This document shows positions 8,586-9,188 of a DNA stretch of 27,751 bases, one piece after another. Position 1 is the first letter of the stretch, and every line of letters starts with the position of its first letter. The position numbers and the translations under genes are program-made. Below the pieces are notes generated by a model that made no database searches, was not told the origin of the DNA, and was given only the letters and a program-made list of their open reading frames with translations. Origin of the DNA: a virus (lineage: Duplodnaviria > Heunggongvirae > Uroviricota > Caudoviricetes); the IMG/VR virus record IMGVR_UViG_2879742664_000010, one strand, 5' to 3'.

Positions 8586-8662
8586 GGCCCTTTAGCTCAG
8601 TTGGTCAGAGCGAGCGACTCATAATCGCCAGGTCGCTGGTTCAAGTCCAGCAAGGGCCACCA
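8586..8662 (+). tRNA. ileZ: tRNA with anticodon CAU, ileX/ileZ-like (tRNA-Ile2; cannot be told from Met by sequence alone)
   Basis: Cloverleaf with acceptor ggccctt/aagggcc, anticodon loop CUCAUAA, 3' CCA; resembles E. coli ileX around the anticodon arm. Confidence 0.85.
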
Positions 8663-8663
8663 A

Positions 8664-8740
8664 CCACCACTAGCTCATCCGGATAGAGCATCAACCTTCT
8701 AAGTTGACGGTGCGAGGTTCGAGTCCTCGGTGGTGGGCCA
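8664..8740 (+). tRNA. argN: tRNA-Arg (anticodon UCU)
   Basis: Acceptor ccaccac/gtggtgg, anticodon loop CUUCUAA, T-loop ggttcgagtcc, 3' CCA. Confidence 0.85.
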
Positions 8741-8742
8741 GC

Positions 8743-8818
8743 GCCGACTTAGCTCAGCAGGCAGAGCAACTGACTTGTAATCAGTAGGTCACCAGTTCGA
8801 TTCCGGTAGTCGGCACCA
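8743..8818 (+). tRNA. tRNA-Thr (anticodon UGU), thrU-like
   Basis: gccgacttagctcag...aactgaCTTGTAAtcagt...ggtagtcggcacca; anticodon loop CUUGUAA. Confidence 0.85.
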
Positions 8819-8821
8819 TAT

Positions 8822-8896
8822 GCGGGCATCGTATAATGGCTATTACCTCAGCCTTCCAAGCTGATGATGCGGGTTCGATTCCCGCTGCCCGCTCCA
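8822..8896 (+). tRNA. tRNA-Gly (anticodon UCC), glyT-like
   Basis: gcgggcatcgtataatggctattacctcagcCTTCCAAgctgatgatgcgggttcgattcccgctgcccgctcca. Confidence 0.85.
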
Positions 8897-8902
8897 GTCA
8901 GA

Positions 8903-8948
8903 GTCTTTCAGTCTGCGATGATGGGAAATCCCGGAGTGACTGAAAGAC
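8903..8948 (+). terminator. Long hairpin directly after the tRNA cluster (possible processing or terminator structure)
   Basis: 11-bp stem (8903..8913 / 8938..8948) around a 24-nt loop that itself holds a ggga...tccc mini-stem. Confidence 0.3.
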
Positions 8949-8955
8949 GTTTAAG

Positions 8956-9028
8956 TTATGAATGATCGCCTTTTTTTGCAAAATTGCTGTGCAGAAATAC
9001 TAACCTTCGGGCGTGCGATCATTCATAA
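8956..9028. repeat. Perfect 14-bp inverted repeat ttatgaatgatcgc / gcgatcattcataa with a 45-bp spacer, upstream of the holin gene
   Basis: Arms at 8956..8969 and 9015..9028 are exact reverse complements. Confidence 0.7.
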
Positions 9029-9188
9029 GCACTCTGCTTTTATTCCGATTAACTGTGGGTGGTTTGTTGGATAGAGTGCTTTCCTTACTGTATATATCGT
9101 TTCGCCCGCTTTTGCGTTTTTTTCTTTTCAAATCCCTTTCATTTCTCAGTGTAAAACTACGCCATCCGTTATTTGCGGAGGTGAGGCT

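Follow-up and report, generated by a model that had tools for sequence, protein, structure and literature searches.

Transfer RNA (tRNA) genes stand between the antiterminator gene Q and the lysis genes of the Shiga toxin (Stx) phage 933W, where they precede the toxin genes, and a tRNA cluster found in the same place without a toxin invites the question of whether a toxin has been lost. That question is raised by the stretch of viral DNA held in IMG/VR record IMGVR_UViG_2879742664_000010 (27,751 nucleotides; hereafter "the window", meaning the whole stretch), in which four tRNA genes at 8586-8896 lie just upstream of a gene for an S-type holin. An earlier note, made from this DNA alone, had proposed a late region like that of Stx phages that lacks, or has lost, its toxin cassette. 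The reading that we favor, and consider probable, is a different one: the cluster would be the remnant of a self-contained, mosaic lambdoid tRNA operon, a "moron" set in the late leader between Q with its terminator and the holin, which supplies decoders of rare codons. On the comparisons set out below, a tRNA cluster before the holin is no mark of a former Shiga-toxin locus.

The tRNA cluster and its relation to Stx phages

ARAGORN, run on the whole 27.7-kb window, finds exactly four tRNA genes, all on the + strand, at 8586-8896 and separated by gaps of 1-3 nt, while the Rfam tRNA model recovers four tRNAs at 56-70 bits, well above its gathering score of 29 bits (E-values 3e-11 to 4e-15). The 3' CCA is encoded in all four. 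First comes tRNA-Ile2 (8586..8662, +; anticodon CAU, reading AUA after lysidine modification; 70.5 bits), an orthologue of ileZ, followed by tRNA-Arg (8664..8740, +; anticodon UCU, reading AGA; 56.4 bits), which has an argN-like body with a C1-G72 pair and A20. The last two are tRNA-Thr (8743..8818, +; anticodon UGU; 69.8 bits), a near copy of host thrU, and tRNA-Gly (8822..8896, +; anticodon UCC; 64.9 bits), identical to host glyT. Both scans support every gene of the cluster and, together with pairwise identities, they agree with the four identities proposed in the earlier note, including Ile2 for the CAU gene; its placement of the cluster just upstream of the S holin is equally sound, the holin reading frame starting at 9189 after a 292-bp spacer.

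The identity of the first gene deserves comment, as ARAGORN, reading its anticodon as CAT, calls it Met, while the label given to an identical gene by the annotation pipeline PGAP is tRNA-Ile. The gene matches 933W ileZ at 74 of 77 positions and K-12 ileX at 69 of 77, against 54 of 77 for metT/metU, and its acceptor stem (GGCCCUU/AAGGGCC) contains the pairs C4:G69 and C5:G68, which we take, as in the TilS literature, to separate tRNA-Ile2 from tRNA-Met. Because of its similarity to ileZ/ileX over metT, these two pairs and the PGAP label, we type it as an Ile2 tRNA of the lysidine kind rather than as Met. The tRNAs of this locus would presumably be aminoacylated, and the first would carry lysidine at C34.

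The remaining three genes have more varied kin. tRNA-Arg shares 61 of 77 positions with 933W argN, 65 of 77 with the Lys-UUU variant of phage PhiR47_1 and 58 of 77 with K-12 argU. tRNA-Thr is identical to K-12 thrU at 74 of 76 positions, set apart from it by two D-loop bases, and tRNA-Gly to K-12 glyT at 75 of 75; the most frequent Thr allele among the phage relatives is itself identical to thrU. The Thr and Gly genes thus resemble members of the host thrU-tyrU-glyT-thrT-tufB operon, but the window lacks tyrU, the 116-bp spacer, thrT and tufB, the two genes lie 3 nt apart, and their context is that of a phage. In E. coli FDAARGOS_943, a "tRNA-Val" at 3365-3439 of the retrieved locus corresponds to this tRNA-Gly gene; its anticodon loop has changed, its acceptor stem is damaged on the 3' strand, and it is best read as a decaying tRNA-Gly copy rather than a Val tRNA.

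The order in 933W is Q, pR', terminators, pT, ileZ, argN, argO, stx2AB, nanS-p and S, and the phage's annotation bears out the statement that ileZ-argN-argO precede the toxin. Window positions 8541-8821 align with the pT-ileZ-argN-argO segment at 75%, and the holin genes at 74%. Both clusters have the promoter pT, an ileZ orthologue as first tRNA and an argN body for the second, and both belong (that of the window by synteny) to the late-operon leader, in which Q and terminators come first and a class II holin follows the tRNAs. They differ in the anticodon of that second tRNA, which is UCU (AGA) in the window and UCG (CGA/CGG) in 933W argN, and in that the window has copies of thrU and glyT and a trailer where 933W has argO, no stxAB or nanS-p thereafter, and a deleted Q. 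Neither the spacer nor the window as a whole matches the stx2AB/nanS-p region of 933W in DNA alignment. Because its second tRNA carries UCU on an argN-like body, and its third and fourth genes are Thr and Gly and not argO, the cluster is best described as a variant of the ileZ-argN-argO kind, not the same cluster.

A further relationship is with Stx2f phages. When all retrieved loci were searched with Stx2A and Stx2B by tblastn, matches appeared in four IMG/VR contigs (L066, L097, L107 and L108), whose order is Q, stxA, stxB, ~517 bp, tRNA-Thr, tRNA-Gly, trailer and S. Three complete E. coli genomes, whose toxin genes are annotated stxA2f/stxB2f, contain the 2.2 kb in question at 98.8%, and the segment recurs in phage phi467 (LN997803; 3501-5721 of locus L149), a Stx2f phage (PMC8136144). 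Identity to phi467 and the Stx2f prophages is 96-97% over window positions 8743-9376, which span tRNA-Thr, tRNA-Gly, a trailer of ~190 nt and the S21-type holin, and this homology starts exactly at the first base of tRNA-Thr (8743; contig L097) and continues into the holin. Upstream of that base phi467 carries stx2fA, stx2fB and 513 bp of other sequence, with no Ile2 or Arg tRNA; in the window this place is taken by pT, tRNA-Ile2 and tRNA-Arg, without a toxin. In Stx2f phages, then, the toxin precedes the tRNA pair and trailer, and in 933W the order is reversed, with the tRNAs before stx.

The region is accordingly related to Stx phages, as the earlier note had suggested, through the 75% match to 933W with its ileZ orthologue and the 96-97% match to phi467. 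Because the same segments occur in many toxin-free phages, however, homology between Q and S does not appear to establish membership among the Stx phages. Since the Stx2f homology begins exactly at the first base of tRNA-Thr, we read the cluster as a mosaic in which two modules are joined. The 5' one (pT, Ile2 and the argN-like tRNA) is common to 933W-type Stx2 phages and non-Stx phages, the 3' one (Thr, Gly, trailer and S) to Stx2f phages and ~520 mostly toxin-free prophages. The toxin genes of phi467 and the Ile2-Arg pair of the window would be alternative cargo on one Thr-Gly-trailer-holin block, and the position of the junction, at the very start of a tRNA gene, suggests that tRNA genes act as recombination anchors.

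Toxin-free relatives and the question of toxin loss

How common is this arrangement, and how often does a toxin accompany it? Among 5,426 complete E. coli genomes, 382 carry at least 80% of 8458-9400, and 523 contain the full-length spacer, at 95-100% identity and in no case annotated. About one in ten complete E. coli genomes carries this segment without toxin genes beside it, and stx2f adjoins it in only 3 of the 523 genomes that contain the spacer and in 4 of 120 viral contigs. The tRNA-spacer-holin unit is also found in the temperate phages PhiR47_1, vB_EcoS-689R5 and vB_EcoM-606R7, all without toxin genes. Between the window and its toxin-free lambdoid relatives (these three phages and the prophages of E. 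coli FDAARGOS_944 and of the enteroinvasive E. coli (EIEC) CFSAN029787), the unit is 94.8-100% identical. The two prophages have the same four anticodons as the window and represent the intact form of the remnant, but most toxin-free relatives, the three phages included, have Lys-UUU in second place and not Arg-UCU. A further difference is that the relatives keep Q, of which they have three types, as well as a full S, R, Rz and the morphogenesis genes. In intact relatives Q, identified by PHROG and Pfam as a Q-like antiterminator gene, stands upstream and S-R-Rz downstream, and Q lies 200-1000 bp upstream in every one examined; in the window S is at 9189 and Q is absent.

The unit is found behind at least four types of Q (DUF1133, a 126-aa Q, a 229-aa Q and a 250-aa Q), which has the look of typical lambdoid mosaicism. 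PhiR49_2, which is not a Stx phage, even has S directly preceded by a triplet of the 933W type, Ile-Arg(UCG)-Arg(UCU), without stx. As far as sequence comparison can tell, the cluster is a common arrangement of toxin-free lambdoid prophages, and not a Stx locus minus its toxin.

Some features found here do favor a Stx-phage late region that had lost stxAB, leaving its tRNAs next to S. Homology to 933W pT-ileZ-argN covers the promoter and the first two tRNAs, the Thr-Gly-trailer-S block is close to that of phi467, the three Stx2f E. coli genomes and the four IMG/VR contigs, and deletions caused by insertion sequence (IS) elements are clear on both sides. Those deletions, however, lie outside the interval from the tRNAs to S, and a tblastn search over the whole window gave no similarity to Stx2A, Stx2B, NanS-p, Q, R or Rz (for Stx2A and Stx2B, nothing at E <= 1); the spacer, too, is without DNA similarity to the stx region of 933W. 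Above all, the phage island at 8458-9377 (920 bp) is 100% identical to 12001-12919 of the intact, toxin-free prophage of FDAARGOS_944, and the place that the toxin takes in Stx2f phages is held here by Ile2 and Arg, 2 nt from tRNA-Thr and with no scar. Because of this 2-nt gap, the missing scar and the identity to a toxin-free prophage, we do not infer toxin loss, nor was a toxin cassette ever demonstrably present here as judged from the aligned loci. Given also how seldom stx2f adjoins the spacer, we hold the loss of stxAB to be very improbable, and largely refuted already.

The proposal of the earlier note that a cassette was lost therefore falls, there being no stx remnant, as does its view of the gap between the tRNAs and S as the toxin slot of this module: the Stx2f toxin lies upstream of tRNA-Thr, and the spacer is contiguous in all 523 genomes. 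The alternative that the note had set against itself was of two parts, of which one stands, in that this is a common non-Stx lambdoid arrangement, and the other does not, in that a relation to toxin loci does exist.

Transcription and function of the operon

Several features suggest that the tRNA genes form a unit of their own. Upstream of the tRNA promoter lies a strong intrinsic terminator (8474..8500, +; stem CCCGC/GCGGG extended by an A-tract and U-tract; -18 kcal/mol, z = -6.0), whose CCCGC...GCGGG and T run are kept, with differing loops, in four prophage lineages. We take it for the tR'-like terminator that lies downstream of Q in relatives, and it would insulate the tRNA operon from upstream transcription. 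A sigma-70-type promoter is predicted at 8548..8576 on the + strand (TTGCAG, 17 nt, TATTAT; 9/12 in the promoter scan), its -10 hexamer ending 9 nt before the start of tRNA-Ile2 at 8586. It aligns with the annotated pT of 933W, and while the flanks diverge, both hexamers are invariant or nearly so in eight of eight otherwise divergent sequences, 933W included.

The downstream end is less well kept. At 9104..9126 (+) lies what remains of the intrinsic terminator at the end of the trailer; the 3' arm has mutated from GCGGGC to GCGTTT, and the predicted stability is down to -3.3 kcal/mol. The form seen in relatives, GCCCGC-TTTT-GCGGGC followed by a T run, reaches -11.5 kcal/mol in PhiR47_1, and the compensated form of HK639, CCTCGC-TTCG-GCGAGG, carries a terminator annotation and reaches -13.7 kcal/mol. 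The mutated 3' arm is present in the intact EIEC and FDAARGOS_944 prophages as well. Because this terminator is degraded, transcription from the tRNA promoter may run on into the holin more readily in the lineage of the window. We propose, because of the conserved promoter, the strong terminator upstream and the structured trailer with (in relatives) a second terminator before S, that the tRNA operon is an autonomous unit, which would be expressed from its own promoter in the lysogenic state, with Q-modified RNA polymerase reading through it in lytic growth.

As for what such an operon would provide, the four tRNAs decode AUA, AGA, ACA/ACG and GGA/GGG, and would boost the supply of minor decoders for phage genes or other horizontally acquired genes. 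A benefit in codon supply, the customary explanation of phage tRNAs, is, in our judgment, the most likely function. When the early genes of the intact EIEC relative are compared with a host sample of 5 genes and 1,372 codons, AUA occurs 11.1 times per thousand codons against 2.9, AGA 9.3 against 2.9, ACA 21.3 against 10.9, and GGA 19.4 against 8.7; the four codons, rare in host genes, are 2-4 times more frequent in the intact relative prophage.

Some observations weigh against this interpretation. The late structural genes of the same relative are weakly enriched (AUA 3.1 and AGA 4.6 per thousand), and the host baseline consists of five genes. tRNA-Thr and tRNA-Gly, as (near-)identical copies of thrU and glyT, would add gene dosage and not new decoding. 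The promoter is a consensus-level prediction backed by conservation alone, and with the terminator before S degraded in this lineage, the "insulated unit" is not strictly kept. Finally, the variation in the anticodon arm of the second tRNA is poorly explained by simple codon supply.

That variation is considerable. In the relatives, the acceptor, D and T arms of the second tRNA are conserved, but its anticodon arm is highly variable: Arg-UCU is found in the window and 10 viral contigs, Lys-UUU, with C33 in place of U, in 61 of 105 viral contigs, and UCG in 933W, while distant relatives have loops of 5 or 6 nt or, in one case, the ochre-reading anticodon UUA. The loop in the window is canonical (CUUCUAA) and the same as in host argU. 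Variants of the second tRNA were seen at 6095-6171 of relative L002, at 2206-2282 of L003, and at IMG/VR loci such as L026, L044 and L090. Such variation suggests another pressure, possibly from anticodon nucleases, or decay; anticodon switching, decoys against these nucleases, or decay could each lie behind it.

One could go further, by analogy, and see in the cluster a counter-defence cassette, whose tRNAs replace, or serve as decoys for, host tRNAs cleaved by the anticodon nucleases of defence systems. Phage tRNAs can offset PrrC-type cleavage, a tRNA-Lys variant of phage T5 reportedly neutralises PARIS, and Lys-UUU and Arg tRNAs are classic targets of anticodon nucleases; a second tRNA that keeps its body yet freely changes its anticodon arm across relatives would fit such a role. 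The loop of the window's own second tRNA is the ordinary one of host argU, however, and tRNA-Thr and tRNA-Gly, identical to host genes or nearly so, would be cleaved alike. Some of the variants may also be plain decaying pseudogenes, of which the "tRNA-Val" of FDAARGOS_943 is an example, and no defence or anti-defence gene is linked to the cluster, all of which makes counter-defence an unlikely explanation. Nor do we think it likely that the cluster is an inert relic, its tRNA genes silent or unprocessed and intact only through the recency of the IS insertions. The surrounding prophage has indeed been destroyed, and the fourth tRNA is decaying in a sister strain; moreover, the copies in Shigella boydii are near-identical to each other and to E. 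coli prophages, which leaves little time for decay and makes conservation uninformative on selection. Yet each of the four genes has the score of a full tRNA and encodes its CCA, the conserved promoter is still present, and the IS ends bound the island exactly, sparing the whole unit. We therefore retain the remnant tRNA operon supplying rare-codon decoders as the preferred reading.

The trailer RNA, the remnant prophage and their meaning

The spacer between tRNA-Gly and S (8897-9188, 292 bp) had been described in the earlier note as containing only hairpins, and this description holds. The spacer is non-coding, has no protein-family match and no Rfam match even at a permissive threshold (which returned only the four tRNAs and noise), and folds more stably than shuffled sequence (z = -3.8). 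Folding and covariation delineate a structured RNA trailer at 8900..9079 (+) that directly abuts the 3' end of tRNA-Gly and comprises three hairpin domains (8903-8948, 8956-9028 and 9029-9079). A small open reading frame in hairpin 1 (MMGNPGVTE...) was considered and ruled out, as a 1-nt indel in distant relatives breaks its frame.

Evidence for the fold comes from its relatives. A motif scan of IMG/VR gave 120 contigs with 56 distinct spacer sequences, ~17 of which are only 72-79% identical to that of the window, and from a 29-sequence alignment RNAalifold predicts the three hairpin domains plus the terminator, with 61 consensus pairs. Standard pairs are formed in 98.3% of cells, against 40-47% when the partners are slid by 1-3 columns, in 11 pairs both partners have changed, against 0-5 after sliding, and the covariation score is 0.221, against 0.055-0.089. 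Most of the double changes separate two clades, so independent events are few, but the signal is consistent over three helices. A profile of the trailer matches window positions 8900-9116 (E = 2.7e-60). The trailer always adjoins the 3' end of tRNA-Gly, or in HK639 a remnant of that tRNA, and its distance to the holin start is fixed at 250-300 nt in 87 of 88 E. coli-type loci. A scan of genome contigs for the trailer motif gave just two representatives, one from E. coli and one from S. flexneri, and a profile hidden Markov model of the trailer found nothing at E <= 10 in 933W, in PhiR49_2 or in the leaders of E2348/69.

Known small RNAs (sRNAs) of similar location were also considered. PasA, PasC and PasD adjoin holin operons (2026 preprint), and the coordinates of the Pas sRNAs in E2348/69 are available (supplement of PMC8550237). 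With the E2348/69 sequences, blastn against the spacer and the whole window gave chance-level matches only, which rules out PasA, PasC and PasD2. STnc100 is likewise ruled out, being separate from the trailer and downstream of it, without overlap, in an HK639-type relative. In HK639-type relatives (L044 2211-2417; L074 5558-5651), Rfam places STnc100 just downstream of the trailer and its terminator; because it follows them in this way, the Q-to-S leader of this type appears to be a string of small RNA genes set apart by terminators. A literature search, with subscription journals outside its reach, gave nothing for ileZ, argN and argO or for sequence strings of the trailer.

The hairpins of the spacer are, on this evidence, best regarded as a structured RNA of ~190 nt that is conserved, backed by covariation and unannotated. 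Whether this three-hairpin trailer is an undescribed functional RNA is a more tentative matter, to which we give somewhat less than an even chance. One possible role is that of an sRNA released from the tRNA transcript, by analogy with the 3' external transcribed spacer of the leuZ tRNA operon; another is that of a regulatory leader controlling read-through into the holin.

The setting in which the operon survives is that of a badly damaged prophage. The cI/cro/ydaT segment of the window (5931-6356) matches 2275-2701 of the FDAARGOS_944 prophage, and between the end of ydaT and the island that prophage holds ~9.3 kb with replication genes, nin-region genes, a Q-like DUF1133 gene (PHROGs, Pfam) and an ORF6N anti-repressor gene, where the window has only an IS911-like element split by an IS1. 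The IS911-like element, of the IS3 family (6432..7536 and 8305..8457, +), is 93.6% and 96.8% identical in its two parts to the element that PGAP names ISEc52 in the FDAARGOS_944 prophage, and the IS1 (7552..8305, -) is a self-match with window positions 1-754. Its right end, that of the IS911-like element at 8457, is the left border of the phage island and marks the deletion that removed Q; the comparison with the intact prophage thereby confirms the statement of the earlier note that an IS911/IS1 composite has replaced that gene.

At the other end, the gene for a class II holin of the phage 21 S type (9189..9380, +; PF04971, E = 1.8e-33) begins with the MKSM dual-start motif (N-terminus MKSMDK) and is cut by an IS600 after codon 63 of 71, a truncation that the earlier note does not mention, with a TGA at the IS600 end as its stop; residues 1-63 are 100% identical to the FDAARGOS_944 holin. 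The window is thus without a full-length class II holin, and without R or Rz. This IS600 (9378..10641, +), the right border of the island, is one of four nearly identical 1264-bp copies in 27.7 kb (1035-2298, 3578-4841, 9378-10641 and 22748-24011). Because the flanking bases of the four all differ, and the copy in the holin has no target-site duplication (its flanks, GAT and TGA, differ), the IS600 copies point to IS600-mediated rearrangement and not to simple insertion. In the stx locus of S. dysenteriae type 1, an IS600 lies directly upstream of stx (PMC7819885).

Beyond the IS600, at 11004-14033, are genes for SLT-domain and Dit-like proteins (11004-13731) and for a Pam3_gp18-like protein; the SLT-domain protein has 561 aa in the window and 673 aa in sister genomes. 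We assign these genes to the tail of another phage type and not to a continuation of the lambdoid late operon. The IS content of the window amounts to four IS600, two IS1, the IS911-like element and duplicated IS66-family parts. The latter are two back-to-back tandem duplications (14055-19074), in which 14055-14936, with a 139-aa helix-turn-helix reading frame and a TnpB reading frame, is repeated at 14937-15818, and 15811-17442, with a 530-aa transposase reading frame, at 17443-19074; their copy number varies among sister genomes.

The exact 63-residue truncated holin is found in S. boydii Sb227 (CP000036) and ~23 other complete chromosomes, beside modABC/ybhA and a phage integrase gene, and the 920-bp island is exact in six of eight retrieved copies. 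The window would accordingly represent a dead lambda-like prophage in a chromosome of the S. boydii type, from which the IS911-like/IS1 composite would have removed the replication genes, the nin genes and Q, and IS600 the end of the holin gene together with R, Rz and the morphogenesis genes. Because the island has its promoter and tRNAs intact, the tRNAs are probably still made, and would be expressed in S. boydii.

The cluster itself is ordinary; what is worth keeping is the exact junction with the Stx2f module, the trailer RNA and the variable second tRNA. The boundaries of the modules fit a view of the Q-to-S leader as a site of moron exchange, in which host-identical tRNA genes serve as recombination anchors. 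The trailer, present in ~10% of complete E. coli genomes, in Shigella remnants and in Stx2f phages, is the sole item here that is possibly new, and offers a concrete, testable candidate for an unannotated prophage RNA. For the host, the consequence may be one of dosage: if expressed in S. boydii, the remnant would add a second gene for each of three single-copy minor tRNAs (the argU, thrU and glyT types), and this doubled dosage could matter for AT-rich acquired genes.

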